Below, in pieces: positions 4,305 through 31,545 of a stretch of DNA of 35,895 bases. This stretch comes from an uncultured Clostridia bacterium. Its GTDB lineage: Bacteria; Bacillota; Clostridia; TANB77; CAG-508. Under the pieces are notes generated by a model. That model was not told the origin of the DNA. It saw only the letters and a program-made list of their open reading frames with translations, and did not search any database. The stretch lies in contig CALXWQ010000001.1 of the NCBI GenBank assembly GCA_944392435.1, forward strand, positions 1 through 35,895. The letters run 5' to 3'. Each line of letters starts with the position of its first letter. Positions within the stretch are counted from its first letter, which is position 1. Position numbers and translations under genes: made by a program.

Positions 4305-4358
4305 ACTTCCTCCATTTTTCAAATCCTGCCTACAACTATTTACACAGCTATCGTTTTT

Positions 4359-4563
4359 AGTCTAGCAATGTATGTTTATAAATTCTCATTTGAGTGCTTA
4401 AGGTGGGGACCGACAAGTTACAGTCTGTAGAAAAAATACTCATGAATAAAAAACTTGTTTTTTATTCATGGTAGAAAGTATGCATATCTCTTGTGTTCTT
4501 TCTTACAGACTGTACGCAGCTTGGGGCCGAAAATGAGAATTTATAAACATACATTGCTAGACT
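4359..4563 (+). repeat. Family A nested-palindrome repeat, copy A1 (full length)
   Basis: Perfect 33-bp terminal inverted repeats AGTCTAGCAATGTATGTTTATAAATTCTCATTT (4359-4391 / 4531-4563). Left core TGAGTGCTTAAGGTGGGGACCGACAAG. Inner stem TACAGTCTGTA / TACAGACTGTA (4419-4429 / 4504-4514). Central 14-bp palindrome CATGAATAAAAAAC/GTTTTTTATTCATG (4441-4470). Right core GTACGCAGCTTGGGGCCGAAAA. Confidence 0.85.
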
Positions 4564-4583
4564 TTTATGAATAACTGTAGTAG

Positions 4584-4603
4584 AACAACGCCAAAATGCA
4601 ATT
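4584..4603 (+). repeat. Family B right-end relic
   Basis: AACAACGCCAAAATGCAATT is identical at 19 of 20 positions to the right end of copy B1 (13305-13324). Confidence 0.6.
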
Positions 4604-4615
4604 CTATTGCAACGG

Positions 4616-7588
4616 TTACTCAAACAATGCCATAATATCTTCCTTAGTAAGTTTATTTATAAATGTTTGCTCTGTAGAAAGCATTGCCTTTGCAAGGTTT
4701 GCTTTCTTTTGTTGCAATTCATAAATTCTCTCTTCTATAGAGTCCTTTGTAATTAGTTTGTACACTTGAACATTCTTTTTCTGTCCTATTCTGTATGTTC
4801 TATCTGTAGCCTGATTTTCTGCTGACAAATTCCACCATGGATCATAATGTATTACCATGTCAGCTCCTATTAAGTTGAGGCCTGTTCCACCTGCTTTAAG
4901 TGATATCAAAAACACTTTTATGTCGTCATTGTTGTTAAACTCCTCAACAAGTTTTATTCTATCTCCTACTTTGGTTTGTCCTGTTAATTTGAAGTACTTT
5001 ATATCTTCCTTTTTTAAGCTATTTTCTATGATTTCTAGCATGCTAGAATAACCTGAGAATAACAATATTTTGTGTCCAGATGCTATAGCATCTTTTAATA
5101 CTTCTATACATTGGTTTAGCTTGCTACTCTCTCCTTTATAGTTTGATATAAATAGAGATGGATGGCAACAAATTTGTCTTAATCTCATTAATAGTGACAA
5201 TATTTTGATTTGGCTTTTTTCAAATCCATTTTTGTTTAGTTCTTCTTTCACTTCTTGTCTAGCATTCGCCATATATGATTTATATATCTTTAATTGCTCA
5301 TCTTGCATTTCATTGTTAAGCACACTTATTGTTTTGTCTGGTAATTCAGTCAAAACTTGTTTTTTAGTTCTCCTTAAAATAAATGGCTCTATTAACATTT
5401 TTAATTTTTCCATAATAAAACTATCATTTTCTTTTACTATAGGAACTTCATAAGAGTCTTTAAATTTTTTGTAGCTAAATAAATAGCCTGGCATTATGAA
5501 GTCAAATATAGACCATAATTCTGATAATGAATTTTCAATAGGTGTACCGGTTAGTGCATACCTTGTCTCTGACCTTATTTCTTTAATTGCCTTTGCATTT
5601 TGAGTACTATTGTTCTTTATGTATTGGGCTTCATCTGCAATTATATACTTAAACTCATAATTTGCTTCTTTGTAATCTTCTATATCTCTTTTTAGCAAAT
5701 CATATGATGTAATTACTAAGTTGTATTTTTTTATACTTTTTATTTGATCTTTTCTCTCTTCTGCAGTCCCATGAATAACTAGTGTTTTTATACTTGGAGC
5801 AAATTTATCTATTTCACTCTTCCAATTCAATGAAAGTGAACTTGGGCAAACTACAATACTTGGTTTTGGATTTTTATTTTCTTTCAAATATGATAAGATA
5901 ACCGCTAATAACTGAACTGTTTTACCAAGTCCCATATCATCTGCAAGAATTCCTCCAAATTTGTAATTGTCCAATACTTTTAGCCATTCAAAACCTATTT
6001 TTTGATAATTTCTCAAACTTGTTTGCAAGCCTGCTGGAAGTTTTATCTCTTCCTCAATTTCCTTTTTGGATACTTGATTTACTATTTTCTTATATTCTTC
6101 ATTCTTAGAAACAGTAGTGTTCACTTTGTTCAATATCCTGTCTAAATACATGCTTCTAGAGATTGGAAGCCTAATTTCTCCTTTTTTTATTTCGTCATAA
6201 GTGATTTCCTCATTTTCAAGCAATCCTGTTATAAAGTCCATAGTCTCATTTTGCTCTAAATCTAGGAAGCTTCCATCTTTTAATCTATGATATTTCTTTT
6301 TTAGAGTGTACTTTTGCATTATATTTCTTATTTCTTTTATATCAAAATCCATATCTTGCAAATCTACTCTAAGCAAATCATTTTCTAGCTTAACACCTAT
6401 TGACCCAATTTTCGGCTTTCTTATTTCTCTTTTCTTAAAATTGTCTGTAGCTAAAACTTCAAATTTTTGCATATATTTTTCAATTTCTTCAGATAAAAAA
6501 TTGTAAATTTTCTCTTCATCAACTAAAATTAGTCTGCTATTTTCCTTATCTAGCATAAACCCTGTATTTACAAACACGTCTAGATACTCATTTTCTTTAG
6601 CAATATCTCTTGCAATAGTTATCTTCTCCTCTTTTAAAGGATTAAACTCGTACTCTCCATACACAAATTTTATATCAGCAGTTATATAGTTGTTTTTATC
6701 ATAGTCTAAATAAATTTTAACAAACAAATCCTCTGGTATATATTTATTAATTAAACTATCATCTAGTTTTTGCAATGATATTTTGCCCTTTAATTTAGGA
6801 TAAATCAATGAACAAAAATTAGGTAAATCTTCTCTTTTAAATCTTATTACTTCTGCATAATTTTCTTTATATATATCTAAAAGCTTTAATGTAGTATTTT
6901 CAAAATCCTTATCACATCTGTATAAAGATTTTCCTGTAAGTAAGTATATATATGATTTTCCTTTGAATATGTCATATGGAAAAACTTTTTTATTTGGAGT
7001 AATTTTATAGTTTCCATCTCTTTCTTGCTCTATAATAAAGTTTATATCTGGATTACTATTTTCAAAAGAAATTTTCTGCTCTACTGTATCTCTTTTGAAA
7101 AGGACTTTCTTTCCTTGCAATACATCAAATAGTTCGTCTAATCCAGTATTTGAAATAGTTATAAACTCATTACTCATAGTTCTATTATATTTGCTATAAC
7201 TTCCCACAGTTTCATTTGCATATTTAATTATTTCTGCATATTTCAAAACAAAGTTTAGCAATGGAAGACACTCTTTTTTGAAAGTTTCCTCTGTATGAAC
7301 GAACTCTAATTTGGGTCCATATTTATATACTTCTTTATTTAACATTCTTTCAAAAAATTCTGGTAAACTTTTTATTTGATATAACTGATTATCTCCAATC
7401 TTAAACTCTGCTTTCAATGTTTTATTAAATGTATCATATATTAATTTTGGCTCTATATTTAAATTATTTATTTTACTTTTTTCTTTCTCCTCTTGCTCTT
7501 TTTCATTATGATAAAAAGTATGCACAATCTGTTTAAATATCTTATATTGTTCTTCATTCCTATTCATTTTTAAGATATCCCTTCTCAT
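4616..7588 (-). CDS. SNF2-family DEAD/DEAH-box helicase with a long N-terminal accessory region (YwqA-like)
   Basis: Helicase motifs ADDMGLGKT (I), IADEAQYIKN (II), LTGTPIENS (III), and C-terminal ...LKAGGTGLNL...QATDRTYRIGQ. The first 520 aa or so are non-catalytic. The alternative ATG at 7567 has a better-placed AAGGGA. Confidence 0.9.
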   Translation of the reverse strand: MRRDILKMNRNEEQYKIFKQIVHTFYHNEKEQEEKEKSKINNLNIEPKLIYDTFNKTLKAEFKIGDNQLYQIKSLPEFFERMLNKEVYKYGPKLEFVHTEETFKKECLPLLNFVLKYAEIIKYANETVGSYSKYNRTMSNEFITISNTGLDELFDVLQGKKVLFKRDTVEQKISFENSNPDINFIIEQERDGNYKITPNKKVFPYDIFKGKSYIYLLTGKSLYRCDKDFENTTLKLLDIYKENYAEVIRFKREDLPNFCSLIYPKLKGKISLQKLDDSLINKYIPEDLFVKIYLDYDKNNYITADIKFVYGEYEFNPLKEEKITIARDIAKENEYLDVFVNTGFMLDKENSRLILVDEEKIYNFLSEEIEKYMQKFEVLATDNFKKREIRKPKIGSIGVKLENDLLRVDLQDMDFDIKEIRNIMQKYTLKKKYHRLKDGSFLDLEQNETMDFITGLLENEEITYDEIKKGEIRLPISRSMYLDRILNKVNTTVSKNEEYKKIVNQVSKKEIEEEIKLPAGLQTSLRNYQKIGFEWLKVLDNYKFGGILADDMGLGKTVQLLAVILSYLKENKNPKPSIVVCPSSLSLNWKSEIDKFAPSIKTLVIHGTAEERKDQIKSIKKYNLVITSYDLLKRDIEDYKEANYEFKYIIADEAQYIKNNSTQNAKAIKEIRSETRYALTGTPIENSLSELWSIFDFIMPGYLFSYKKFKDSYEVPIVKENDSFIMEKLKMLIEPFILRRTKKQVLTELPDKTISVLNNEMQDEQLKIYKSYMANARQEVKEELNKNGFEKSQIKILSLLMRLRQICCHPSLFISNYKGESSKLNQCIEVLKDAIASGHKILLFSGYSSMLEIIENSLKKEDIKYFKLTGQTKVGDRIKLVEEFNNNDDIKVFLISLKAGGTGLNLIGADMVIHYDPWWNLSAENQATDRTYRIGQKKNVQVYKLITKDSIEERIYELQQKKANLAKAMLSTEQTFINKLTKEDIMALFE

Positions 7589-7698
7589 TTTTTCTAGTAA
7601 GGTATTATATCACATTTTACTGGCTTGTGCAAGAGAAGGGCTGGCAATTTTTCGAACAAAGGTAACTATTTAAGGCTTTTTGATTTTTGCTTTTTTTT

Positions 7699-7927
7699 AT
7701 CTAGGCAATGTGTATGTTTTAAATTTTGCTTGAGTGCTTAAGGTGGGGACAGACAATTTTACATTTCTGAGACGTGAGATATGTGATGTGTGTTGTGAGA
7801 ACTTAGAATAAAGTATTTCACATATCTCATTTCTCACCTCTCACTTCTCATTTCCCATAATACAGTTTGTACGCAGTTGAGGACCGAAAGCAAATATTTA
7901 CAACATACATATTCATATTTCCTAGAT
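7699..7927 (+). repeat. Family A repeat, copy A2 (full length, large variable insert)
   Basis: Left end ATCTAGGCAATGTGTATGTTTTAAATTTTGCTTGAGTGCTTAAGGTGGGGACAGACAA. Right end ACAGTTTGTACGCAGTTGAGGACCGAAAGCAAATATTTACAACATACAT...CCTAGAT (imperfect TIR). The variable centre has its own 12-bp stem TGAGATATGTGA/TCACATATCTCA (7775-7786 / 7818-7829) and a TCTCA(C/T) run. A possible degenerate extra copy lies at about 7621-7655 (GTGCAAGAGAAGGGCTGGCAATTTTT). Confidence 0.8.
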
Positions 7928-10554: not shown

Positions 10555-10574
10555 AAGCTCTTTTATCCCATTAC

Positions 10575-10703
10575 AGAAGATTATAAATTTTTTATTTGAG
10601 TGCTTAATGTGGGGACCGGCAAGTTTACAAACTGTTAAACGAAGTTTTTACAGTTTGTACGCAGTTGTGGCCGAAAATAAAAATAAAAAATTTATAATCT
10701 TCT
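10575..10703 (+). repeat. Family A repeat, copy A3 (compact full copy)
   Basis: Perfect 23-bp TIR AGAAGATTATAAATTTTTTATTT (10575-10597 / 10681-10703). Cores GAGTGCTTAATGTGGGGACCGGCAAG and GTACGCAGTTGTGGCCGAAAA. Inner stem TACAAACTGT / ACAGTTTGTA (10625-10634 / 10650-10659). Confidence 0.85.
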
Positions 10704-10728
10704 ATACCTACTAATAAAGAAAGGTACT

Positions 10729-11841
10729 TTATATTACCTTCCTTATTTCCTCATATATTTTTTCTTCTACATTAGGCATTGCTACTTTTGTAGCATTATT
10801 TCCCATTTGTTTTAATGTATTGGGATTACAAACTACTTCCTCAATAGTCTTCTCTAAACTTTCAGAATTCAAATCTTTATCTAAAATTATTTTTGCTGCT
10901 CCTACTTTTTCCAAAACTCTAGCATTATATTCTTGATGATTCTCTGTTGCGTATGGATATGGTATAAATATTGCAGGTTTGCCTACAACAGAAATTTCAG
11001 TAATTGTCATTGCTCCACTTCTACATACTACTAAATCACATGCATTCATTACTTCTTCCATATTATATATGTATGGGACAATTTTTACATTTTCTATATT
11101 GTTTATATTCATGTTTACTTCATCTAGCTTAATTTTTATCTCATCATATTGTCCTGGTCCTGCCGCCCAAATTATTTGATAATCTTTATTTTTTTTATTT
11201 ACTATTATTTCTAGGAAACTTCTATTTATGCTTTGTGCCCCTTGGCTTCCGCCAAAAACCAATACTACAGGCTTATTTTCTTTTATTCCTAACTTGGTTT
11301 TTATTTTCTTCTTTTCTTCTTCTGACAAATCTAGTTTCTTTATTTTTACTGGATTTCCTGTTACTACTACATTACTTGCTCCTTCTAATCTATCTTTTGC
11401 ATCCTGAAACCCTACCAATATTTTATTTACTTTTTTCTTAAATAATTTTACTGCAATTCCAGGAAATGCGTTACTTTCATGAAGTACAACTGGTATTCTC
11501 ATTTTCTTTGCTGCTAGAACTGTTGGTACACAAATATATCCGCCCATTCCTATAACTACATTTGGTCTAAAGTTATCCAAAAATCTTTGTGCTTCCCCTA
11601 TTGACTTAAAAGTAGCATATAAATTTTTAAAATTTTGTACTGTAAATTTTCTTTCAATTCCATGGGCATCAATTGTCCAAAGAGGAAAACCTGCTCTAGG
11701 AACTAAATCGTTTTCTAATCCTCTATTTGTTCCTATAAAAATGATCTCTGACTTTGGTTCTTTTTCTTTAATTTTATTTGCTATAGCTATTCCAGGATTT
11801 ATATGTCCTCCTGTACCTGCAGCTGCAATTATAACTTTCAT
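10729..11841 (-). CDS. murG: UDP-N-acetylglucosamine--N-acetylmuramyl-(pentapeptide) pyrophosphoryl-undecaprenol GlcNAc transferase
   Basis: MKVIIAAAGTGGHINPGIAIA N-terminus, GGSQGA motif and dcw context. Start moved to ATG 11841 because the AGGAAGGA SD abuts the track's ATG 11850. Confidence 0.93.
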   Translation of the reverse strand: MKVIIAAAGTGGHINPGIAIANKIKEKEPKSEIIFIGTNRGLENDLVPRAGFPLWTIDAHGIERKFTVQNFKNLYATFKSIGEAQRFLDNFRPNVVIGMGGYICVPTVLAAKKMRIPVVLHESNAFPGIAVKLFKKKVNKILVGFQDAKDRLEGASNVVVTGNPVKIKKLDLSEEEKKKIKTKLGIKENKPVVLVFGGSQGAQSINRSFLEIIVNKKNKDYQIIWAAGPGQYDEIKIKLDEVNMNINNIENVKIVPYIYNMEEVMNACDLVVCRSGAMTITEISVVGKPAIFIPYPYATENHQEYNARVLEKVGAAKIILDKDLNSESLEKTIEEVVCNPNTLKQMGNNATKVAMPNVEEKIYEEIRKVI

Positions 11842-11873
11842 TTTTATCATTCCTTCCTATAAGCTTAGAAAAG

Positions 11874-11975
11874 AATTGACGTTTCAGCTATGTGAACAAG
11901 CAGTAAAATCAGAAGCGTGCTTTTTGCCACTTCGAAGTCTTTCTCTTTTCAGTTCAATAGTTTCAAAGCTCAATT
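11874..11975 (+). repeat. Family B palindromic repeat, copy B3 (most diverged)
   Basis: AATTGACGTTTCAGCTATGTGAACAAGCAGTAAAATC aligns to B1 AATTGTTGTTTTGGCTAAGCAAACAAGCAAGAAAACC. Central imperfect hairpin GAAGCGTGC-TTTTT-GCCACTTC. The right end is ...AGCTCAATT. Length 102 bp. Confidence 0.65.
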
Positions 11976-11990
11976 ATTTTCCAGCTACTT

Positions 11991-13154
11991 TTACACTTTA
12001 CTTCTAGATCTAGATATATTTAGCAAAATACCACACATTCCCATTAAAACCACAAGAGCAGTACCTCCTGCACTAAAGAATGGTAGTGACATTCCTGTAT
12101 TTGGTATTGTGTTTGTAACAACTCCTATATTGATTGCAACTTGGACCATTACTAATGTTGTAATTCCTGTAGCTATTAAACTTCCAAACATATCTGGTGC
12201 CTTCATTGCAATTATTATTCCTCTCCAAATAAATAATGCAAATAATATAATTACAACTATGCAACCTACAAATCCAAGTTCTTCTGCTAATATTGAAAAT
12301 ATAAAGTCATTTTGTGGTTCTGATACATAAAGATATTTTTGTTTGCTCTCTCCAAGTCCTACTCCGAAAAGACCTCCTGAACCTATTGCATATAAACTTT
12401 GAATAGTCTGCCAACCAGTGCCAGTTGGGTCTTGCCAAGGATCCATATAGTTTAATATTCTTCCAATCCTAAAGTTTGCATCTCCAGCACTATCTCCTGC
12501 CATAGAGAAATATGCCATAAGAGCTGTTATTCCACTTCCTCCTACGACCAATCCAGTTATTACAAAATATAATAATCTGCATCCTGCCATAAGCATCATC
12601 ACAACTGTAATAGCACTCATAACTACACCAACACTTAAGTGGTTTTGAATAAATAACGCAATTGCTACAGGTGGAATTATATATAAAAGAGGAATTACAA
12701 AGCCCTTTTTAAAACTTCTTAAGTCTGCTTTATGATCTGTCAAATAGCCTGCATAAAATATAATCATTCCTATTTTAGTAAGCTCTGAAGGTTGAAATTG
12801 TCCAAATCCTAAACTAATCCACCTTCTAGCGCCTCCACCAGATGAGCCTAATCCTGGTATTAAAACTAATAATAGCACTCCTATAGAAAGCCAATATATT
12901 GGCCAATATATTTTCTTAAAATATTTATAATCAAATCTAGAAGCAACCCACATTACAAATAATCCTAGAAGCGCAAATGCAATTTGCCTTGTAACATATG
13001 TATAACTATCACCTGTTTCTGCAAGCGCAGAAGGTGCACTTGCAGATAATACCATTACAATTCCAAATGATAGAAGTATTATTATTATTATTACTAATAT
13101 AAAGTCTACTTGACCATTTTTTGTCTTTTTCATTCCTTTTACTTTATTTTGCAT
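11991..13154 (-). CDS. ftsW: SEDS-family peptidoglycan glycosyltransferase FtsW/SpoVE
   Basis: Polytopic membrane protein with RWISLGFGQFQPSE, GLGESKQKYLYVSEPQNDFIF and LPFFSAGGT motifs, in dcw context. ATG 13154 is preferred over the track's TTG 13166. Confidence 0.92.
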   Translation of the reverse strand: MQNKVKGMKKTKNGQVDFILVIIIIILLSFGIVMVLSASAPSALAETGDSYTYVTRQIAFALLGLFVMWVASRFDYKYFKKIYWPIYWLSIGVLLLVLIPGLGSSGGGARRWISLGFGQFQPSELTKIGMIIFYAGYLTDHKADLRSFKKGFVIPLLYIIPPVAIALFIQNHLSVGVVMSAITVVMMLMAGCRLLYFVITGLVVGGSGITALMAYFSMAGDSAGDANFRIGRILNYMDPWQDPTGTGWQTIQSLYAIGSGGLFGVGLGESKQKYLYVSEPQNDFIFSILAEELGFVGCIVVIILFALFIWRGIIIAMKAPDMFGSLIATGITTLVMVQVAINIGVVTNTIPNTGMSLPFFSAGGTALVVLMGMCGILLNISRSRSKV

Positions 13155-13211
13155 TTTGTAAATCAATCCTTTCCGAATTGAACAATTTTATATATTCTTA
13201 TTCTCTTATAC

Positions 13212-13336
13212 AAGTTTGAAAAAAATTGTTGTTTTGGCTAAGCAAACAAGCAAGAAAACCAAAGATGTACTTTGTAACATCAAAGGATTTTCGCAGTGCA
13301 GTTCAACAACGCCAAAATACAATTATTATTCAAACT
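13212..13336 (+). repeat. Family B palindromic repeat, copy B1
   Basis: The 101-bp core 13224-13324 runs AATTG...CAATT. Outer stem TTTTGGC/GCCAAAA, middle stem GAAAACC/GGATTTTC, central hairpin GATGT...ACATC. Flanking AGTTTGAA / TTCAAACT (13212-13219 / 13329-13336) extends the palindrome. Confidence 0.8.
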
Positions 13337-13434
13337 AAAAATAGCAGACTATGCATTTTTTTAGTTTGTCAAAACTTAAAACAATTTAAGTTTTTTAGCA
13401 TCTTTTAAAATAAAACACACTATTTTATACACTT

Positions 13435-14412
13435 TCAAATAGCATATAGTCCTATAATGCAGAAAACCAAAGTAATTAAACTAAATACTGACACAATTTT
13501 GTTTTCTTTCCAACCAGATAATTCAAAATGATGATGTATTGGCGTCATTTTAAATACTCTATTTCCTGTTTTCTTAAAATATGCTACTTGTATCATTACA
13601 GACAATGTTTCTATTATTGGTATTATAGCTATAATTAATAGTAATAGTGGCATTTTTAAATAAAGTGCAATACCTGCTATAGCACCTCCAAGCATCAAAG
13701 AGCCTGTGTCTCCCATCATTACTTTTGCAGGATTTAGATTAAATAGTAAAAATCCTAAACATGCACCAATTAAAATAGTTCCTACTACTGTTACTTCTTT
13801 TATTCCAAATAATATTGATATAACCGTTAAGCAAGCAAGTATTATTGTTGTAACACTTGTAGATAATCCATCTATTCCATCAGTTAAATTAATTGCATTT
13901 GTTGCAGCTAACATTACTAGCACTGCAAATGGCACATATAACCAAATTGGTAATGTTACATATGTTTTAGCAAATGGTATATATATATCTGTCCCTATAT
14001 TAAATACTTTTACTAAAATTATTGTATAAACTACTGACACTATTAAAAGTCCAAACATTTTGGATTTTGGGCTTAATCCTTTTGTGTTTTTTAATACAAG
14101 TTTTTTAAAATCGTCTATGAATCCTATAAACCCAAAGCCTACAGCTACGCCTATTAATGGTAATATAGCTTGCGCAGTCTCAAGCTGATCCACTTTATAA
14201 TCCATATATACAAATATTCCAACTGCTATTAAAACTAATATTATTATTATACCGCCCATTGTTGGCGTTCCTTGTTTTTTTAGATGAGATTGTGGCCCCT
14301 CTTGCCTCTCTATTTGACCCACTTTTAATTTTCTTAATATTGGTACAATTATTAAAGCTAATATTACACTTACTACAAATGACAGTATTAATATTTTATT
14401 TTGATACTGCAT
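13435..14412 (-). CDS. mraY: Phospho-N-acetylmuramoyl-pentapeptide transferase
   Basis: Ten-TM-type protein with GTPTMGG, FIDDFKK, NAINLTDGIDGL and PIHHHFE motifs. GGAGG lies 8 nt before ATG 14412. Confidence 0.95.
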   Translation of the reverse strand: MQYQNKILILSFVVSVILALIIVPILRKLKVGQIERQEGPQSHLKKQGTPTMGGIIIILVLIAVGIFVYMDYKVDQLETAQAILPLIGVAVGFGFIGFIDDFKKLVLKNTKGLSPKSKMFGLLIVSVVYTIILVKVFNIGTDIYIPFAKTYVTLPIWLYVPFAVLVMLAATNAINLTDGIDGLSTSVTTIILACLTVISILFGIKEVTVVGTILIGACLGFLLFNLNPAKVMMGDTGSLMLGGAIAGIALYLKMPLLLLIIAIIPIIETLSVMIQVAYFKKTGNRVFKMTPIHHHFELSGWKENKIVSVFSLITLVFCIIGLYAI

Positions 14413-14511
14413 ACATTTTTCCTCCTTCGTCCTTCTATGAATGAAATATAATTGATTTTGTTGCTGTTAAAAATGTTTTTTCTTCAACTACTATCTCGTA
14501 GATTTTAATAG

Positions 14512-14612
14512 AATTGTATTTTGGCTATGCAAACGAGCAAAAAAACTGGAGGCGTACTTGGTGTACGCTGAGGATTTTTCGCATGCGAAGTTTAACAACG
14601 CCAAAATCAATT
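14512..14612 (+). repeat. Family B palindromic repeat, copy B2
   Basis: 101 bp, AATTGTATTTTGGCTATGCAAACGAGC...TTTAACAACGCCAAAATCAATT. Central perfect hairpin GCGTAC-TTGGT-GTACGC (14552-14568) flanked by A-run/T-run. Confidence 0.8.
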
Positions 14613-14629
14613 ATATTAAGAGCTTTCAT

Positions 14630-16108
14630 TCAGCTGATTTCGTTTATTATACTGTTTACTATCTCAACCTCATCAAAAGGATATCGTTTTTTATTTATTT
14701 CTTGATATTGTTCATGACCTTTTCCTGCAAGAACAATTATATCTTTCTTGTTAGCCATGTTTATTGCTCTTTTTATAGCTGCTTTTCTATCTACAATACA
14801 TACATATTTTCCTTTTGTCTTTTTTATTCCTTTTTCTATCTCTTTTACTATTTCTTTTGGTTCTTCTGTCCTTGGGTTATCTGACGTAATAATTGTATAA
14901 TCAGCTACTCTTCCAGACACTTCGCCCATCATAGGTCTTTTATTTTTGTCTCTGTCTCCACCACATCCAAAAACAGAAATTACTCTTCCTTTAGTATATA
15001 TTTTTACTGAGTTTAATATTTTTTCTAAACTCTCTGGTGTATGTGCATAATCAATCATTATTGTAAGTCCTAATTTATTATCAACTAACTCGCTTCGTCC
15101 TGGTACTCTTATATTTATTAAAGCATCCTTTATATTGTCGCTTGTGCATCCAAAATTAAGTGCTACGGCTATAGCCGCTAAAGAATTGTATACACTAAAT
15201 CTTCCTGGAATTGAAACTTTTACTCTTTCATTTTTATCTCCAATTTTTACTTTGAAATCAACATATTGATTTGTAACAGTAATGTCTTTTGCAAGTAAAT
15301 CACAATGATTGTCTATTCCATATGTTGAGATTTGGCATTCTGGAACAAGTTTTGGTATTGTAATAGCATATACATCATCCGCATTTATAAAGCCTTTTTT
15401 GCACATTTTAAATAATTTTACTTTTGAATTAAAATAGTCTTCCATATTTGGATGTTCCTTAGTGCTTATATGATCTTCAGACAAATTTGTAAAAACTCCA
15501 ATATCAAAATCACATCCGGCTACTCTTTCTAGTTTTAAACTTTGAGAAGACACCTCCATTACAACAACTTCACATTTTTCTTCCAGCATTTTGCTAAATA
15601 TTTCTTGTAACTTTAAGCTCTCAGGTGTTGTATTCTCATTGTTAGCAATCTTTCTGTCTCCTACATAAGAGGCAACTGTGCCAATTAAACCAACTTTTAT
15701 TCCTTTTTTTTCAAGTATATCTCTTATCATATATGTTGTTGTAGTTTTGCCCTTTGTTCCTGTTACTCCTACAAGCTTAAATTTTTGAGATGGATTTTTA
15801 TAGAAATTGCATGCACAAATTGCTAATGAATATCTTGTATCTTTAGCTAAAATTAATGTCACATCATCTTTAATCTCTTTTATAATTTTTTTATCTATTA
15901 TATCCTCTTGTGCCATAATCACTTTAGCTCCATTATTCATTGCTTCCTCAATATGTTCATGCCCATCAACATCAAATCCCTTTACTGCAACAAACATATC
16001 ATCAGGTCCTACATTCTTAGAATTGTTTCTAATATTTTTTACATCTATATCTAGGCTTCCTTTTACTTTTAAGCCTTCTAATCCAGCTAATATTTTTTTT
16101 AATTCCAT
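14630..16108 (-). CDS. murE: UDP-N-acetylmuramoyl-L-alanyl-D-glutamate--2,6-diaminopimelate ligase
   Basis: P-loop GVTGTKGKTTT. The DNPR motif (ITSDNPRTE) is typical of meso-DAP-adding MurE. GAGAGGGGAG SD 8 nt before the ATG. Confidence 0.94.
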   Translation of the reverse strand: MELKKILAGLEGLKVKGSLDIDVKNIRNNSKNVGPDDMFVAVKGFDVDGHEHIEEAMNNGAKVIMAQEDIIDKKIIKEIKDDVTLILAKDTRYSLAICACNFYKNPSQKFKLVGVTGTKGKTTTTYMIRDILEKKGIKVGLIGTVASYVGDRKIANNENTTPESLKLQEIFSKMLEEKCEVVVMEVSSQSLKLERVAGCDFDIGVFTNLSEDHISTKEHPNMEDYFNSKVKLFKMCKKGFINADDVYAITIPKLVPECQISTYGIDNHCDLLAKDITVTNQYVDFKVKIGDKNERVKVSIPGRFSVYNSLAAIAVALNFGCTSDNIKDALINIRVPGRSELVDNKLGLTIMIDYAHTPESLEKILNSVKIYTKGRVISVFGCGGDRDKNKRPMMGEVSGRVADYTIITSDNPRTEEPKEIVKEIEKGIKKTKGKYVCIVDRKAAIKRAINMANKKDIIVLAGKGHEQYQEINKKRYPFDEVEIVNSIINEIS

Positions 16109-16244
16109 AGCTTAGATTCTCCCCTCTCTTAATTTTAAAATATGCCTTTTACATTATATAACTAAATTTAACTTTTGTACATACTTTTTCAAAATTTACT
16201 TTTTATCGACTTATTATTTAAAAATTTTTGATTTTTGCTTTTTT

Positions 16245-16325
16245 ATCTAGGAAATATGTATGTTTTAAATTTTGCCTAAAGTGCTTAAGGTGAGGGCTGG
16301 AAATAAAAATAAAAAACATATACTT
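16245..16325 (+). repeat. Family A repeat, copy A4 (internally deleted; right boundary approximate)
   Basis: ATCTAGGAAATATGTATGTTTTAAATTTTGCCTAAAGTGCTTAAGGTGAGGGCTGGAAATAAAAATAAAAAAC. The left arm and the preceding TTTTTGATTTTTGCTTTTTT closely match A2 (7678-7745). The single hybrid GGTGAGGGCTGG replaces both cores and everything between them. Confidence 0.7.
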
Positions 16326-16344
16326 CTTTGCTAAAACTTAGCCA

Positions 16345-18573
16345 TTACTTGTACTCCACCACCACTTTTGTTCCTTCATAAATTTCAATTCCACTAACAG
16401 GAACTTGAACTGTAACAGTCTTATCCGCTACATTCTCCTCTGTTTCTTCATAGCTTATTTCAAGTCCTACATCCTCCAATATTTTCTTTGCCTCACTAAC
16501 CGTTAAACCCGTTACATTTGGAACTTCTACTTCTTCTTTTATATCATCTTCTGTTAGATTATCTTTTTGAACTTCTAAATATGGAAGAACTTCTCCCAAT
16601 ACTTGTGAGCCTATTGGTGCTGCAACACCTCCTCCTTGGTGTCCTCCTTCTCCTGTTGGATTATACAATGTTATTAGTACTACTACTTGTGGGTCAGATA
16701 CTGGTGCTACTCCTACAAATGAAGTTACGTATTTCCCTGTATTTACTCCATCTTCTGAAGTTCCTGTTTTTCCTCCTATTGAATATCCTTGTACTCTAGC
16801 ATTTTTTCCTGTTCCTTCAGCAACAACTGTCCCCATCATGCTAAGTACATCTTCTGCAGTTTTTTGTGATATTACTCCTTCTGTCTCTTCTATTGGTATA
16901 TCTGTAATTTCTCCAGTCACACTATTTATGATTTGTTTTACAATGCGTGGTTTTACATATGTTCCTTTGTTCGCAATTGTACTTACAGCTGTTATCATTT
17001 GTATTGGTGTTATTTCAAATCTCTGTCCAAATGATATAGTCGCAAGTTCTACCGGTCCCACTTTATCTTCCTTTAAGAAAATACTTCCTGCTTCTCCTGG
17101 AAGATCAATCCCCGTTCTTTTTAATAATCCAAACTTTTCAAGATAATCATAATACTTGCTTACTCCAATTTCTTGACCTAATCCTATAAAAACAGGATTA
17201 CATGAATTCATAAGAGCCTGCCTTAAACTTTCTGAACCATGTGGGTTATAGTATCTCCAACAACTTATACGTACTCCTGCTACTGTTATTCCTCCTGTAC
17301 AGCAAAATTCACCTTGTTTATCTGTTGTAGTTATTCCTTCCTCTAGTGCTGCTGATGCAGTAATCAATTTGAATGTAGAGCCTGGCTCATATGTATCTGC
17401 AACAGCTTTATTTCTCCAAACTTTTTGCATCTCTGCAACTTGTTCAGTTTCCGATAAGTTATCCCAACTTTCTCGTAACTCTTCTATAGTAGTCTCATAT
17501 GGCGTATTCAAGTTATAATCTGGATATCCAGCCATTGCCAAAATATCTCCAGTTTTTGGGTTCATAACAATTATGTTTCCCCCATCTGTACATTTATTGT
17601 CAATACATGCCTCTTTCAGGTATTTTTCAGCTATTCCCTGTATTGTCGCATCAATACTTAAAACTAAATCATTGCCATCTACTGCGGAAGTGTAACTTTC
17701 TCCTTCATTCTCTATTTCGCCTCCATTTGCATCTGTGACCTTAGTAATTCTACCCTTTTCTCCTTGCAATTCATCTTCATAAATTGCTTCTATTCCATCT
17801 AATCCCTGATTGTCGGAGCCACAAAACCCTATTACCTGAGATGCTAAACTATTATATGGATAATATCTTTTCGTATCTTCATCTATATTTATTCCAGTTT
17901 CTATATTGTTAGCCTCCATCCAAACTCTAAGCTCATCAGTTTTTTCTTTTTCTACTTTTCTAGCTATATTTTCAATAGATGTTTTTTTGTTTACCTTTTT
18001 TAATACAGTCTCATAGTCTAAGTCAAATATATTGCTAAGTGCTTCTGCCACCTTTTCTTTATTTTCTTTAGAGATATTAGTTGGATTTACAGTTACTGTA
18101 TTTACAGTACTACTCACTGCCAAAATAGTTTTTCCTGTAGCATCATATATAGTTCCCCTTCTTGGATTTACTGCTCTTTCCAAACTCTGTTGCTCATAAG
18201 CCATCCTCTTTAATTCATCACCCATTACAAATTGTATCCAAGCAATTCTTCCAATAAATACAGTAAATATTAAACAAACTGCAACTATTGCCACTTTAAA
18301 TCTTTTTCTTCTACTAATCTCGCTATATTTTTCTTCTGCTTTTACCTTATCTTCTTTTATCTGTTTTCTATACTTCTTATTTTGTTTTTTTTCAAATTTC
18401 TTTTTCAATCTTTCTACATTCTCTATCTTTTCAGCTTTTTCTTTTTTTATATTCATTATTTCTTTTCTATCAAATCTTGGTATTATCTTTTTTCTCTCTT
18501 TCTCTCTATAAAATCCTCTTTTGGTTTTTCTTTTGTTCCCCTTTCTTTTTCCTGTATTCATTCTTAATCTCAT
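16345..18573 (-). CDS. Class B penicillin-binding protein (PBP2B/SpoVD type) with one PASTA domain and a long Lys-rich cytoplasmic tail
   Basis: Transpeptidase motifs STFK (EPGSTFKLITA), SCN (MNSCNP) and KTGT, plus C-terminal PASTA (VPNVTGLTVSEAKKILEDVGL). About 90 K/R/E-rich residues precede the TM helix. ATG 18561 is the alternative start. Confidence 0.92.
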   Translation of the reverse strand: MRLRMNTGKRKGNKRKTKRGFYREKERKKIIPRFDRKEIMNIKKEKAEKIENVERLKKKFEKKQNKKYRKQIKEDKVKAEEKYSEISRRKRFKVAIVAVCLIFTVFIGRIAWIQFVMGDELKRMAYEQQSLERAVNPRRGTIYDATGKTILAVSSTVNTVTVNPTNISKENKEKVAEALSNIFDLDYETVLKKVNKKTSIENIARKVEKEKTDELRVWMEANNIETGINIDEDTKRYYPYNSLASQVIGFCGSDNQGLDGIEAIYEDELQGEKGRITKVTDANGGEIENEGESYTSAVDGNDLVLSIDATIQGIAEKYLKEACIDNKCTDGGNIIVMNPKTGDILAMAGYPDYNLNTPYETTIEELRESWDNLSETEQVAEMQKVWRNKAVADTYEPGSTFKLITASAALEEGITTTDKQGEFCCTGGITVAGVRISCWRYYNPHGSESLRQALMNSCNPVFIGLGQEIGVSKYYDYLEKFGLLKRTGIDLPGEAGSIFLKEDKVGPVELATISFGQRFEITPIQMITAVSTIANKGTYVKPRIVKQIINSVTGEITDIPIEETEGVISQKTAEDVLSMMGTVVAEGTGKNARVQGYSIGGKTGTSEDGVNTGKYVTSFVGVAPVSDPQVVVLITLYNPTGEGGHQGGGVAAPIGSQVLGEVLPYLEVQKDNLTEDDIKEEVEVPNVTGLTVSEAKKILEDVGLEISYEETEENVADKTVTVQVPVSGIEIYEGTKVVVEYK

Positions 18574-22139: not shown

Positions 22140-22233
22140 GATGTTAGAATTCACGGCTTTCCGATTTATAATTTAATAGAGAAAGAAACATCATTTTATA
22201 AAATGCAATCGGCAAGCCGTGAATTCTAACATC
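22140..22233. repeat. 27-bp inverted repeat with 40-nt spacer
   Basis: GATGTTAGAATTCACGGCTTTCCGATT (22140-22166) and AATCGGCAAGCCGTGAATTCTAACATC (22207-22233) are complementary at 26 of 27 positions. There is no adjacent T-run on either strand. Confidence 0.7.
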
Positions 22234-23016: not shown

Positions 23017-23125
23017 ATTATATGTTGCCAAATAATAGTTTTATTAGCTTTCATATGCTAAAATGCTGGTAGTCGGCATTTTAGTACAGCAAAACTAATA
23101 AAGCCATTATATAGCAACGTAATAT
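23017..23125. repeat. About 109-bp imperfect palindrome in the divergent promoter region
   Basis: The arms 23017-23066 and 23076-23125 are largely complementary, for example GTTGCCAAATAATAGTTTTATTAG vs CTAATAAAGCCATTATATAGCAAC. The centre is CTAAAATGC-TGGTAGTCG-GCATTTTAG. Confidence 0.6.
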
Positions 23126-27557: not shown

Positions 27558-27671
27558 CCTTTGTATCTTCCTTTCGAAAATATTTTTTACTCATTTCAAG
27601 TAAAATATTCCCATTTTATTGTTAATATTCTAACTCACTTCACACAAAAAATCAAGCTTTATTCGAAAAAT

Positions 27672-27711
27672 AAGAACTGCTTTTGTTACTATAGTAACAA
27701 AAGCAGTTCTT
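27672..27711 (-). terminator. Rho-independent terminator of ftsH
   Basis: Perfect 19-bp arms AAGAACTGCTTTTGTTACT / AGTAACAAAAGCAGTTCTT. On the minus strand it is followed by ATTTTTCG. Confidence 0.8.
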
Positions 27712-27716
27712 GTTTT

Positions 27717-29525
27717 TTAACTATTAAAAATTGCATCAAATTCGTCTCCATCAATTTTCTCTTTTTCAAGTAGAACTCCCGCAACACTGTGAAGTTTATC
27801 TATATGCTCTCTCAAAATTGATTCTGCCTTTTGGTATGCACCATCTATAATGCTTTTTACTTCCTCATCTATAATTCCTGCTGTTTCTTCTGAGTATTCC
27901 TTAGATTGTGCAAAGTCTCTTCCTAAAAATACTTCTTCTTGATTTTGACCAAGTGTAATTGTTCCTACTCTATCACTCATTCCATATTTAGTAACCATCG
28001 CTCTGGCAATTTTTGTAGCTCTTTCTATATCGTTGCTTGCTCCTGTAGAAATATCATCTAATATTAATTTTTCTGCTACTCTACCACCTAAAAGTGATAC
28101 TATATTTTCAAGCATTTCTGTTTTTGACATAAATGACTTGTCTTCTGTTGGTCTATACATTGTGTAGCCACCAGCCATACCCCTTGGTACAATTGATATT
28201 TGATGTACTGGGTCTTGGGTTGGTAAAAATCTACTTACTACAGCATGACCTGCTTCATGATATGCAACTAATTTTTGCTCTTTATCACTTCTTACTCTTG
28301 TTCTCTTTTCTGGTCCCATTGTAACTTTTACCATTGCATCTTCTATTTCTTGCATTCCTATTTCTCTTAAATTTCTTCTTGCAGCTAAAAGTGCAGCTTC
28401 ATTTAATACATTTTCTAGGTCTGCTCCAGAAAAGCCTGATGTGTTTTTAGCAATTGTTTTTAAATCTACATCTATAGATAATTTTTTCTTTCTACTATGA
28501 ACTTCTAGTATTTGCTCTCTTGCTTTAACATCTGGACTAGATACTACAATTTGTCTATCAAATCTTCCTGGTCTTAACAATGCTTTATCCAATACGTCTG
28601 GTCTGTTTGTAGCTGCCAGTACTATTACGCCTTCATTAGCTGAGAAACCATCCATTTCTACAAGTAATTGGTTTAATGTTTGTTCTCTTTCATCATGTCC
28701 CCCACCAAGTCCTGCACCTCTTTGACGTCCTACTGCATCAATTTCATCTATAAATACTATACAAGGTGCTTTTCTTTTAGCTTCTTCAAACAAATCTCTT
28801 ACTCTTGATGCACCAACACCAACAAACATTTCAACAAAGTCAGAACCACTTATTATAAAAAATGGTACTCCTGCTTCTCCAGCGACTGCCTTTGCTAAAA
28901 GTGTTTTACCAGTACCAGGTTGACCAACAAGTAATACACCTTTTGGAATTCTTGCTCCCATATCTGTAAATTTCTTTGGATTTTTTAAGAACTCTACAAT
29001 TTCTTCTAATTCTTCTTTTTCTTCATCTACACCAGCAACATCATCAAATGTAACTTTATCTTTATCTGCTGGATTCATCATTCTTGCTCTACTTTTTCCA
29101 AATGACATAGTCTTGCTTCCACCAGCATTTCCTTGACTTCCACTCATAAATAGGAACCAGAAAATTAAGAAAATAATTAAAATTCCAAATGGTGTAAGTA
29201 GACTTAAAATAAACATCCATATAGATTCTGAAGCTTCTGTTACTGTAATAGTTCCAGCTGTCATCCTGTCTTGTAAATTATCCATTAAATTGTCTATACT
29301 AGGAATATTTACTTGTTTTACAAAGTTTTCATCTTTAAGCTTTACTTCTGCAGTTGTTCCATCTGAAGAAATTTCTATTCCTGCCACATTTCCAGCTTCA
29401 ATTTCACTTAGTAATTCTGAATATGCCAGTTTATTGCTATCACTATCTAAAATTGAGGTTAAAACAACTACAAATATTATACCTATAATTAGCCACATAG
29501 CTAACGTTTTTATTCCACTTTTCAA
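27717..29525 (-). CDS. ftsH: ATP-dependent zinc metalloprotease FtsH
   Basis: Two TM segments, Walker [14 protein letters not shown], Walker [32 protein letters not shown] and zinc site HEAGHA. TTG start 29525 with GGAGG 8 nt upstream. Confidence 0.96.
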
Positions 29526-29620
29526 ATTTCAATTCCTCCTTTTTTCGTTTTAGAACATATCTAAAAGACATTTTGTAAATAATTACATTCCTTTTTCAAG
29601 GCACAATATGGTTGAATAAG

Positions 29621-29722
29621 AATTAAATTTTAACTAAAAGACGAATTTGAAATTTATAAGGCGTACCCCTTTGTACGTTGATTAAAATTCAAATAAAGTT
29701 TGGCATAGTTAAAATTATAATT
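29621..29722 (+). repeat. Family B palindromic repeat, copy B4 (AT-shifted)
   Basis: 102 bp, AATTAAATTTTAACT...AGTTAAAATTATAATT. Central AAGGCGTAC-CCCTTT-GTACGTTGA parallels B2 GAGGCGTAC-TTGGT-GTACGCTGA. Confidence 0.6.
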
Positions 29723-29889
29723 AATTTTCAATCCTTCACCTTTGAAATATACCATATAAATGTACTTATTTCAAGGCTTTTTTTAAAAGTTTTTTATTCC
29801 AATCAGTAATCTTCTACGGAAAGTCAAGTTTAGAGTTATAAATTTTTTTATATTAATTTTTACAATTCACATCAATCCAAAAGAAATAT

Positions 29890-29940
29890 ATATTTTTTAT
29901 TTTTATTTGAGTACTTATGTTTGGGCTGGAATTAAAAAGA
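29890..29940 (+). repeat. Family A repeat, copy A5 (short, diverged; boundaries approximate)
   Basis: TTTTTATTTTTATTTGAGTACTTATGTTTGGGCTGGAATTAAAAAG parallels A3/A4: TTTTTTATTTGAGTGCTTAA.GT.GGG and GGGCTGGAAATAAAAA. Confidence 0.5.
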
Positions 29941-30068
29941 ACAAAGCGACGAACGTCGCCCTTTGTTCGTGCTGATTTGAGTTTCCGAGCGAAGTGAGGA
30001 AATCTCAAAGGCAATAGCGATTTCAGCTCTAATTTAAGTTATAGGAAATGCAATTTCCTATAACTTAA
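29939..30068. repeat. Three consecutive hairpins in the tilS-ftsH spacer
   Basis: GAACAAAGCGACG-AA-CGTCGCCCTTTGTTC (29939-29968). TTTGAGTTTCC...GGAAATCTCAAA (about 29976-30009). A perfect 16-bp stem TTAAGTTATAGGAAAT / ATTTCCTATAACTTAA (30034-30049 / 30053-30068). Confidence 0.7.
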
Positions 30069-30100
30069 AAAACAATATTTCTTTTGGATTATAAGGCTAA

Positions 30101-31198
30101 CTATACATTTTGTGAACTAACATATATTTTTCCTTTTCTTACATATATTTTTATTCCAGCTTTTGGAGTTAAATATTTATTTCCAATATTGTTGTTACAC
30201 AATTTTACTATATCATCTATATGTATTTTTTCTATACCATTTGTGCTTCCATATACTTTTGATATAGTATAAAGAATTAATTTCGATTTAATTACGCCAT
30301 CTAATTTATTAAATTCTTTCAAATCTAAAATCACTGTATTTTGGTTATTATTTAAAATACTATCAGCCTTTTTTGTATTTTTTAAAAGATTCGACTTTTT
30401 CTCAATTTCTCTATTTACATGATTTTCGCTTATACTTTTGTCAATGCAATTATTTGCATTTATTAATAACCTCTTATACTCTTTTTCCACAATTGTGTTT
30501 ATAAATTGTTCTTCTTCTGTTGCAATTTGAGATAATCTGTTAATTCCTTCTATAATATTGGAATTAAACTCTTGTTTTATAAATGGAATTAACATGTTTC
30601 TTATTTTATTTCTTGTATAAATGTTTTCTGAATTTGATTTATCATACTTGGGATTTAGCCTTTTTTCTTTGCAATATTCTTCAATTTCATCTCGAGAACA
30701 TTCTATTATAGGTCTTATTAACCTTCCATCTCTGACCTTTTCAATTCCTTTTAACCCAGATACAGACGTTCCTCTAATAATATTCATAAGCACTGTCTCA
30801 GCATTATCATTGCTATTATGTGCTGTTGCAATTCTATTTGCTCCAACTTTTTTAGCAACCTCTTCAAAAAACTCATAGCGTATATTTCGTCCAGCTTCTT
30901 CTGTACCTATTTTTTGTTCTTTGGCTATTTCTTCAACTTTTACTTTCTTAAAAAAGAATTCCACATTAATTTTAGCACAAAATTCTTTAACATATTCCGT
31001 TTCTTCATCAGCTTCTTCTCTTATCATATGATTAATATGTGCCACATATAAATTTATATTCAATTTTTCCTTCAAATCATTTAATATATTTAAAAGTGTC
31101 ATTGAGTCTGGTCCACCAGACACACCAATTACAACTTTGTCTCCATCTTCTAACATGTTGTACCTTTGAATTGTTTTTAAAACCTTTTCCTCAAGCAT
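30101..31198 (-). CDS. tilS: tRNA(Ile)-lysidine synthase (short form)
   Basis: PP-loop VIGVSGGPDSM, then HINHMIREEADEE and RPII..SRDEIEEYC. ATG 31198 (MLEEKVLKTI) is preferred; AAGGGA lies 11 nt upstream. Confidence 0.9.
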   Translation of the reverse strand: MLEEKVLKTIQRYNMLEDGDKVVIGVSGGPDSMTLLNILNDLKEKLNINLYVAHINHMIREEADEETEYVKEFCAKINVEFFFKKVKVEEIAKEQKIGTEEAGRNIRYEFFEEVAKKVGANRIATAHNSNDNAETVLMNIIRGTSVSGLKGIEKVRDGRLIRPIIECSRDEIEEYCKEKRLNPKYDKSNSENIYTRNKIRNMLIPFIKQEFNSNIIEGINRLSQIATEEEQFINTIVEKEYKRLLINANNCIDKSISENHVNREIEKKSNLLKNTKKADSILNNNQNTVILDLKEFNKLDGVIKSKLILYTISKVYGSTNGIEKIHIDDIVKLCNNNIGNKYLTPKAGIKIYVRKGKIYVSSQNV

Positions 31199-31545
31199 AA
31201 TTACTCTCATCCCTTCTAAATTCATAAATCTAAAAACAAATTTAAGAATTGCTTAACGTTATTCTTCGTTTAGCAATTCTAAGTTTTCTAATCAATTTTA
31301 TTTTTCATTTATATATTTTTCTACAAAACTCCATAATTCCTCTGCTGTTTTTATTTGTGTTTCTGTTTCTTCGTATAGACAATTGTTTTGATATTTTAGC
31401 ATTCACTTAACACAACTCCCTCTTTTTGAACATTCATATAAAAAGGTAATGCCACTAACCAATAAATAAATTTATTTATATTTTCTGGTATTTTTTTCAT
31501 AACATCTACACTTTCTTCCATACTTTATTTTAATTAATAATATTT

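Follow-up and report, generated by a model that had tools for sequence, protein, structure and literature searches.

Why should the genes of a normally compact cell wall operon be set apart by long palindromes? The question is raised by a stretch of 35,895 nucleotides (nt) from an uncultured Clostridia bacterium (GenBank assembly GCA_944392435.1, contig CALXWQ010000001.1), hereafter the window, in which murE, mraY, ftsW and murG of the dcw (division and cell wall) cluster follow the gene for a SpoVD-type penicillin-binding protein (PBP). A preliminary description, made from the letters alone, had put the widening of these junctions at 140-270 nt and ascribed three of them to one palindromic repeat family, here called family B, with a fourth copy between ftsH and tilS; it had also proposed that the copies form hairpins on the dcw mRNA that set the stoichiometry of the enzymes. 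The junctions measure 236 (PBP-murE), 217 (murE-mraY), 268 (mraY-ftsW) and 140 nt (ftsW-murG), and both profile scores and empty sites in relatives support a single repeat family widening otherwise tight spacers. Its role is read differently here: family B probably consists of lineage-specific, non-coding, imperfect palindromes of ~125 nt, a non-autonomous mobile element of the miniature inverted-repeat transposable element (MITE) or REPIN kind that has become dispersed over the chromosomes of one clade of uncultured gut Clostridia. In this best explanation, held overall with the same degree of confidence, the copies would not be a built-in control device for murE-mraY-ftsW-murG.

Copies in the window

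All four copies listed earlier were recovered, on the + strand and antisense to the genes, by a profile search (nhmmer) with a profile from 70 independent copies of other genomes or by a covariance model (CM), which combines sequence and structure (Table 1). On the minus strand, CM scores at the same sites reach only 12-25 bits. B2, with the arms AGTTTGAAAAA / ATTATTCAAACT, and B3 are near-consensus copies and plainly alike; B1 and B4 are weaker in direct comparison. The B sequence profile alone did not pick up B4, which has the same outer frame (GGTTGAATAAG-AATTA...TAATT-AATTTTCAATCC) and is bridged to the family by the intermediate copies L022:5048-5171 (E 7e-11) and L033:6829-6960 (E 3e-10); it is therefore a distant subfamily member (L022, L069, L081 and similar labels denote comparison loci outside the window). 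The length of ~101 bp given earlier is right for the core and too short for the full unit, in which the palindrome continues 10-14 nt past AATTG/CAATT, to ~125 nt.

The locus L069, from the metagenome-assembled genome (MAG) CAKNQJ01, shares 83-90% identity with the window in its flanks and has intact copies in all three junctions. Core identity between orthologues is 97% for B3 (L069:4175-4274), 84% for B2 (L069:2979-3079) and 71% for B1 (L069:1628-1728), against 67-73% at third codon positions, a weak yardstick, since element-free spacers are likewise 89-96% conserved. By this comparison B3 looks constrained and B1, which is at the third-codon level and folds with a z-score of merely -1.45, looks dead, apparently a copy decaying at the neutral rate. 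The spacer conservation between the window and L069, measured in the element-free intergenic DNA at 14413-14498 and 16109-16218, is in itself unusually strong.

Two relics complete the inventory. The right end noticed earlier at 4584-4603 proved to be part of a longer profile match that adjoins the SNF2-family helicase gene at its stop codon, with an element of family A, a second and unrelated palindromic repeat, directly against it. The other relic, B0 (14439-14471), absent from the preliminary description, forms an inverted repeat with the right end of B3 (89% complementary). An alignment with L014 and L069 shows its orthologue in L014 (MraY 85% identical) to be the right end of a full copy, L014:9866-9964, which lies in the murE-mraY junction and is opposite in orientation to the window copy; this junction has therefore been hit at least twice.

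Empty sites and turnover in relatives

Close relatives carry the same genes with short junctions. At murE-mraY, mraY-ftsW and ftsW-murG, respectively, the spacing is 32, 10 and 30 nt in L081 (MraY 95% identical to that of the window), 18, 129 and 13 nt in L011 (91%), 25, 81 and 21 nt in L079 (90%) and 94, 53 and 14 nt in L012 (87%). The preliminary description had recommended looking for empty dcw sites in related strains and had named conserved leader sequences as the outcome that would speak against inserted repeats. Empty junctions were found in all four relatives, which identifies the elements as insertions rather than conserved leaders.

Apart from the pair L069 and L081, no closer filled/empty pair was found after a scan of metagenomes. 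These two loci are 96.8-97.6% identical across the 1.6 kb that comprise the 3' half of murE and the whole of mraY, and L081 is without an entire 186-nt block of L069, consisting of B3 and the older relic with a 45-nt spacer, its empty junction reading AGCTGAAAGAA / ATAGAAGGACGAAGGAGG (also written AGCTGAAAGAA / ATAGAAGG). Because the block is common to L069 and to the more distant window, the difference would be due to loss or import in L081, which most likely lost the block cleanly or gained an empty allele by recombination. In ftsW-murG, L081 is only ~70% identical to L069, with the break at the mraY-ftsW junction, and its ftsW is called in two pieces of 269 + 65 amino acids (aa); L081 is therefore a mosaic, either recombinant or a chimeric contig.

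Two more filled/empty pairs were found elsewhere (L017/L038 versus L073, and L034/L074 versus L040). A family-A-like element of ~118 nt (L074:4350-4470) is nested in a B copy and absent in the 97%-identical L034, and the family-A copy at 16239-16329 of the window is missing from L069, whose spacer is otherwise 96% identical; family A, too, is recently mobile. Its other copies in the window lie at 4344-4578, 7694-7903, 10560-10706 and 29874-30090. The murE-mraY junction of L012 (9907-10000) holds a different palindrome, GGAGACCTGTCCCAGAAACGACAACTTTGTCGTTTTCAGGCCTGTCCC, so other hairpin elements were attracted there too.

Census and distribution

The census of further copies that had been called for was run on 185,579 species, one genome each, with the pattern GCTANGNNAACNAGCAN{45,75}GTTYAAYARYKYCAAA, which matches B1-B3 and for which a rough estimate gives a chance expectation well under one match. 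It returned 68 matches in 63 stretches of 25 MAGs, all titled uncultured Clostridium, Clostridia or Clostridiales, with ~19 in CAMOBD01, 12 in CAKNQJ01 and 6 in CALXJO01. A metagenome collection added 25 stretches, several of them with contig names of human gut metagenomes. Family B is thus dispersed, multi-copy, present or absent between close relatives, and always intergenic.

A phage or plasmid origin was rejected, as the pattern was without a match in viral contigs, GenBank phages and PLSDB plasmids. A known RNA family was rejected as well: Rfam 15 gave 0 matches in the window at the gathering score, and only chance-level hits (E above 2) in 11800-14700. No description of family B was found in a full-text literature search.

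Structure of the hairpin and its strand

Structure was analyzed on 70 unique copies (alignment A2), with the + strand as the model orientation. The unit has paired outer arms 10-14 nt long, the left one often reading (T)AG(T)TTG(G/A)AAAAG. Inside the left arm follow AATTG, 2-3 variable nt, TTTTGGC and the nearly invariant GCTAGGCAAACGAGCAAG; the centre consists of the stem GAAAACC and an apical hairpin such as GGCGTAC-loop-GTACGYT; and the right half runs from GGATTTTC through the nearly invariant CGCAGCGAAGTTTAACAACGC, GCCAAAA and CAATT to ATTTTTCAA(A)CT(A). Hardly any variation is seen in the two asymmetric internal loops (GCTAGGCAAACGAGCAAG / CGCAGCGAAGTTTAACAACGC), while the stems need only pair.

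RNAalifold predicted one long hairpin with a compensatory change in 21 of 36 pairs, and the structure completed by hand has 44 pairs, with 95.7% of cells paired and changes on both sides in 26 of the pairs (195 cells). None of 500 column shuffles reached the observed values of pairing or covariation, and pairing fell to 35-48% of cells when partners were slid by 1-3 columns. Helix 1, formed by the arms and AATTG/CAATT as terminal inverted repeats, is paired in 96.6% of cells. Folding and covariation had been suggested as a check, and the variable but paired apical hairpin described earlier holds on the 70 copies. Family B is small, below the ~400 bp taken as the limit for a MITE, and non-coding, with no open reading frame (ORF) of at least 90 aa spanning any of the 72 copies checked.

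The hairpin belongs to one strand. On the model strand there are 170 G.T cells versus 32 A.C cells; its mean folding energy is -47.5 kcal/mol, that of the complement -40.3 kcal/mol, and 68 of the 70 copies fold more stably on it (Wilcoxon p 1e-12). Among the 53 copies that lie between co-directional ORFs, the model strand is antisense in 49 (-,-), as it is in all four window copies, and sense in 4 (+,+); the mRNA therefore usually bears the weaker hairpin. No copy is inside an ORF. In 45 of 60 copies (75%) the upstream ORF ends at most 18 nt from the CAATT end, which places its stop codon inside the arm or at the arm edge; 11 copies supply this stop codon themselves, as the TAA of TAATTG. On the downstream side, the spacing up to the start codon varies widely and is often 25-100 nt or more.

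Copy-specific arms

Paralogues with 0-1 differences in the 66 core columns often share just 1-4 of 9 arm positions, yet the two arms of each copy stay complementary to one another. Differences in arm length are mirrored, as with GGAAAAAG and ATTTTTTC in L028, and the orthologues L017_7502 and L038_687, which differ at 1 of 66 core positions, show compensated differences at 3 of the 9 positions of the arm. The arms are also partly heritable, since GAGTGAAA is common to L014 and L071, which are different loci, and some arms go with core subtypes. Five comparisons of filled and empty sites had an arm look-alike directly after the stop codon of the empty site (TTTTGAAAATA, TTTTAAAAATAAAT, TGAAAGAA, TATGAAAGGAATGA and CATTGAAAATG). 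Insertion into existing palindromes or terminator loops was rejected, given that the downstream arm is missing from the empty sites.

Three readings of this pattern were considered: pairing may be selected in old copies with constrained cores, the arms may be homogenized by quasi-palindrome template switching, or one arm may pair with the target at insertion. A bolder version, which we put forward as possible but doubtful, is that the outer 6-12 nt of the arms are written at or soon after insertion as the inverted complement of the adjoining host sequence, often including the upstream stop codon. The unrelated yet self-complementary arms on identical cores, the mirrored indels and the look-alikes in empty sites support it. 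If arms are rewritten in this way, the target could be chosen by pairing of the arm with a TTGAAAA-like host sequence, or the arm could be made by hairpin-templated synthesis. We know of no bacterial MITE or REP element with such a mechanism. Only the copy-specific, mirrored arms make family B unusual and might lead somewhere new: if they are truly rewritten to match the landing site, the family would lend itself to the study of target pairing or hairpin-templated repair in a miniature element.

Proposed mode of spread and alternative explanations

We envisage that the active unit would be a strand-specific, single-stranded DNA hairpin, mobilized by a protein supplied in trans that would recognize the conserved loops. 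It would land a few nt downstream of a stop codon, beside a TTGAAAA-like sequence and without a long target duplication, and its arms would then be kept or made complementary through hairpin-templated copying. The dcw copies would be passengers, co-transcribed in the orientation of the weaker RNA hairpin and tolerated by selection.

Several results weigh against a mobile element of this kind. No target-site duplication of at least 5 nt was found in the 70 copies, contrary to what a cut-and-paste MITE of the DDE type would leave; the best fixed-offset repeat score is within the range of shuffled controls, and the longest flanking direct repeat averages 4.87 nt versus 4.74 nt in shuffled pairs, a duplication of 3 nt or less being possible. 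No multi-copy ORF was found near the copies in ~0.7 Mb of loci, which are MAG fragments, nor did tblastn with an approximate IS200 TnpA query, a weak test, detect an IS200/RAYT-like ORF there. From the GC skew, the stronger hairpin appears to be on the strand expected as the leading-strand template, and IS608-type elements use the other strand. Moreover, the 97% identity of orthologous B3, versus ~70% by the third-codon yardstick, and the single change in 66 core positions between L017 and L038 suggest constraint on single copies, not expected of an element that is purely selfish, although spacers free of the element are 89-96% conserved as well. Two leads to a parent or a duplication were dropped: direct repeats of 6-10 nt in three copies vanished in the 70-copy test, and the ends of the insertion sequence (IS) beside murG in L080 (DDE_Tnp_1) are unrelated to family B.

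The main alternative is the one favored in the preliminary description, namely that the copies are domesticated cis-acting RNA hairpins, serving as RNase III or other processing sites, 3' stabilizers or weak attenuators that tune MurE, MraY, FtsW and MurG. It would fit the co-varying stems, a sense RNA that folds at ~-40 kcal/mol on average (B3, -30.6 kcal/mol, z -5.2), the strong orientation bias with most copies right after an upstream stop codon, and the cores of B2 and B3, in which conservation between species exceeds that of third codon positions. Nevertheless we consider it unlikely, because both wobble pairs and energy favor the non-mRNA strand, B1 seems to decay neutrally, and the same element adjoins unrelated genes across 25 species. 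The suggested attenuation at U-runs is not borne out either, since the terminator scan flagged only the apical hairpin of B3, on the + (non-mRNA) strand; the U-run of the mRNA strand begins 5-6 nt past the apical stem, and that strand has no canonical site, i.e., a G+C-rich stem directly followed by a U-tract. A promoter within the element was likewise rejected, promoter-like sites being no commoner than in shuffles. Furthermore, the near-conspecific L081 and several relatives run the operon with junctions of 10-32 nt and without the elements, and a required role of family B in dcw stoichiometry therefore seems unlikely. It is possible that an mRNA hairpin with a modeled energy of ~-40 kcal/mol has an incidental effect on processing or stability; if the copies do affect mRNA processing, natural filled and empty alleles of one operon are ready for comparison.

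It could also be argued that family B provides DNA sites used by the host, as do the REP and BIME repeats of enterobacteria, with loops that bind gyrase, a nucleoid protein or a recombinase and copies kept for chromosome organization. A non-pairing core that hardly varies among paralogues and orthologues even as paired positions drift, a strand-specific hairpin and strictly intergenic copies are what such sites would predict, but copies are gained and lost between close relatives, B1 seems to be decaying, the number of pattern matches ranges from 1 to ~19 among related MAGs, and a candidate protein was not identified, all of which makes this explanation quite improbable. Hardly conceivable is a vertically inherited dcw leader or spacer, or a chance likeness in AT-rich DNA: the 89-96% conservation of spacer DNA between the window and L069 might suggest it, but the junctions of relatives are empty, 68 copies lie at unrelated loci, E values go down to 3e-32 and the scan pattern had no hit outside the clade.

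The window also shows that four inserted hairpins of 90-125 nt can be accommodated by an essential operon that is normally compact. The analysis provides a well-defined repeat family with a structure model for gut Clostridia that are poorly known and represented by MAGs alone. Repeats of this type break assemblies, mark strain-level variation and can be mistaken for regulatory RNAs.

Genomic context

The window has a G+C content of ~30%, and its long ORFs are all on the minus strand. NCBIfam agreed with the earlier naming of murG, ftsW, mraY, murE, the PBP gene, ftsH and tilS (Table 1), and rsmH, ftsL, topA and trmFO are among the other genes confirmed. Between 10729 and 16108 the order is murE-mraY-ftsW-murG, murF and murD not being in between, and murG is followed downstream by a DUF6514 gene and then topA.

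Table 1. Positions of family B copies, relics and selected genes in the window
Feature	Position	Strand	Support
B3, intact, murE-mraY junction	14499-14624	+	nhmmer E 3e-32; CM 120 bits
B3 left arm	14499-14511	+	
B3 AATTG	14512-14516	+	
B3 apical hairpin	14551-14569	+	
B3 CAATT	14608-14612	+	
B3 right arm	14613-14624	+	
B2, intact, mraY-ftsW junction	13211-13336 (core 13224-13324)	+	nhmmer E 3e-30; CM 108 bits
B1, degenerate, ftsW-murG junction	11861-11988 (core 11874-11975)	+	nhmmer E 2e-16; CM 49.5 bits, E 1.5e-9
B4, ftsH-tilS spacer	29603-29740 (core 29621-29722)	+	CM 36.5 bits, E 2e-6, + strand only
Relic, right ~40 nt of a copy (model positions 92-132)	4576-4616	+	nhmmer E 1.4e-5
Relic B0, older copy, right end and arm only	14439-14471	minus (opposite orientation)	nhmmer alone weak, E 6
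SpoVD-type PBP gene	16345-18573	minus	NCBIfam
murE	14630-16108	minus	NCBIfam
mraY	13435-14412	minus	NCBIfam
ftsW/spoVE	11991-13166	minus	NCBIfam
murG	10729-11850	minus	NCBIfam
SNF2 helicase gene	4616-7588	minus	NCBIfam
ftsH	27717-29525	minus	NCBIfam
tilS	30101-31225	minus	NCBIfam

Other sequences in the window resemble small insertions or hairpins. A stretch of ~92 nt that separates B2 from the stop codon of mraY (13338-13434) is missing in L069, carries two small hairpins (CTAAAAA..TTTTTAG and AAACTTAAA..TTTAAGTTT) and may be a third kind of small insertion. In the near-identical strain L001, a 139-aa ORF lies between the SNF2 helicase gene and trmFO (L001:19791-20409), where 4323-4615 of the window holds the B relic and a family-A copy, which makes this a strain-level variable spot. 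Strong inverted repeats, with arms of 26-46 nt that are 78-96% complementary, occur at 27666-27717, 22140-22233 and 23021-23121; with the B covariance model neither strand scores higher than the other, so that they are generic hairpins rather than family B, possibly terminators or other repeat families.

Comparison with known systems

Hairpin MITEs that are co-transcribed with genes include Correia/NEMIS in Neisseria, ERIC/IRU in enterobacteria, RUP and BOX in S. pneumoniae and bcr1 in the Bacillus cereus group; elements of this kind duplicate a defined target (TA, TTTAT and others), and several have an identified parent IS. Family B resembles them in being non-coding, 100-170 bp long and bounded by terminal inverted repeats, in its location in operon spacers near gene ends, in its insertion polymorphism and in possible orientation-dependent effects on mRNA. 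It differs in that neither a duplication of at least 5 nt nor a parent IS was found, and in that it has no sequence similarity to them. A comparison with integron attC sites showed GTTAAAC, which fits GTTRRRY, on the sense strand; the copies sit between housekeeping genes, and no integrase is among the annotated ORFs of the window, although no attC-directed search was made.

Quasi-palindrome template switching is a known replication error in which one arm of an imperfect inverted repeat serves as the template for the other; it homogenizes the arms and is able to flip the spacer (PMC7202029, PMC8604942). It would yield the mirrored substitutions and indels seen in the arms of family B; however, it is a mutational process rather than an element family, and the conserved mismatches within the family B core are not erased.

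The closest parallel is with REPINs, which are doublets of REP sequences that form hairpins and are mobilized by RAYT/TnpA-REP, as in Pseudomonas fluorescens SBW25 (PMC3116915). Family B is set apart from them by its low-GC Firmicute host, by a RAYT gene not found in the ~0.7 Mb of loci with the approximate query, by the lack of conserved GTAG/CGTC, by halves that are not short palindromes, by consensus ends of the form ..AAAAG AATTG / CAATT ATTTT.. and by variable outer arms, whereas the ends of REPINs are invariant. REPINs nonetheless also have conserved blocks together with compensated positions, and a pairing step has been proposed for them too (PMC3116915). Like them, family B is an extragenic, multi-copy hairpin of ~100 nt made of two inverted halves, with compensatory changes, without a target duplication and with a single-stranded hairpin as the presumed active form. 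Family B is a previously undescribed element, confined to a clade of uncultured gut Clostridia, but of a familiar kind of bacterial "junk" element.

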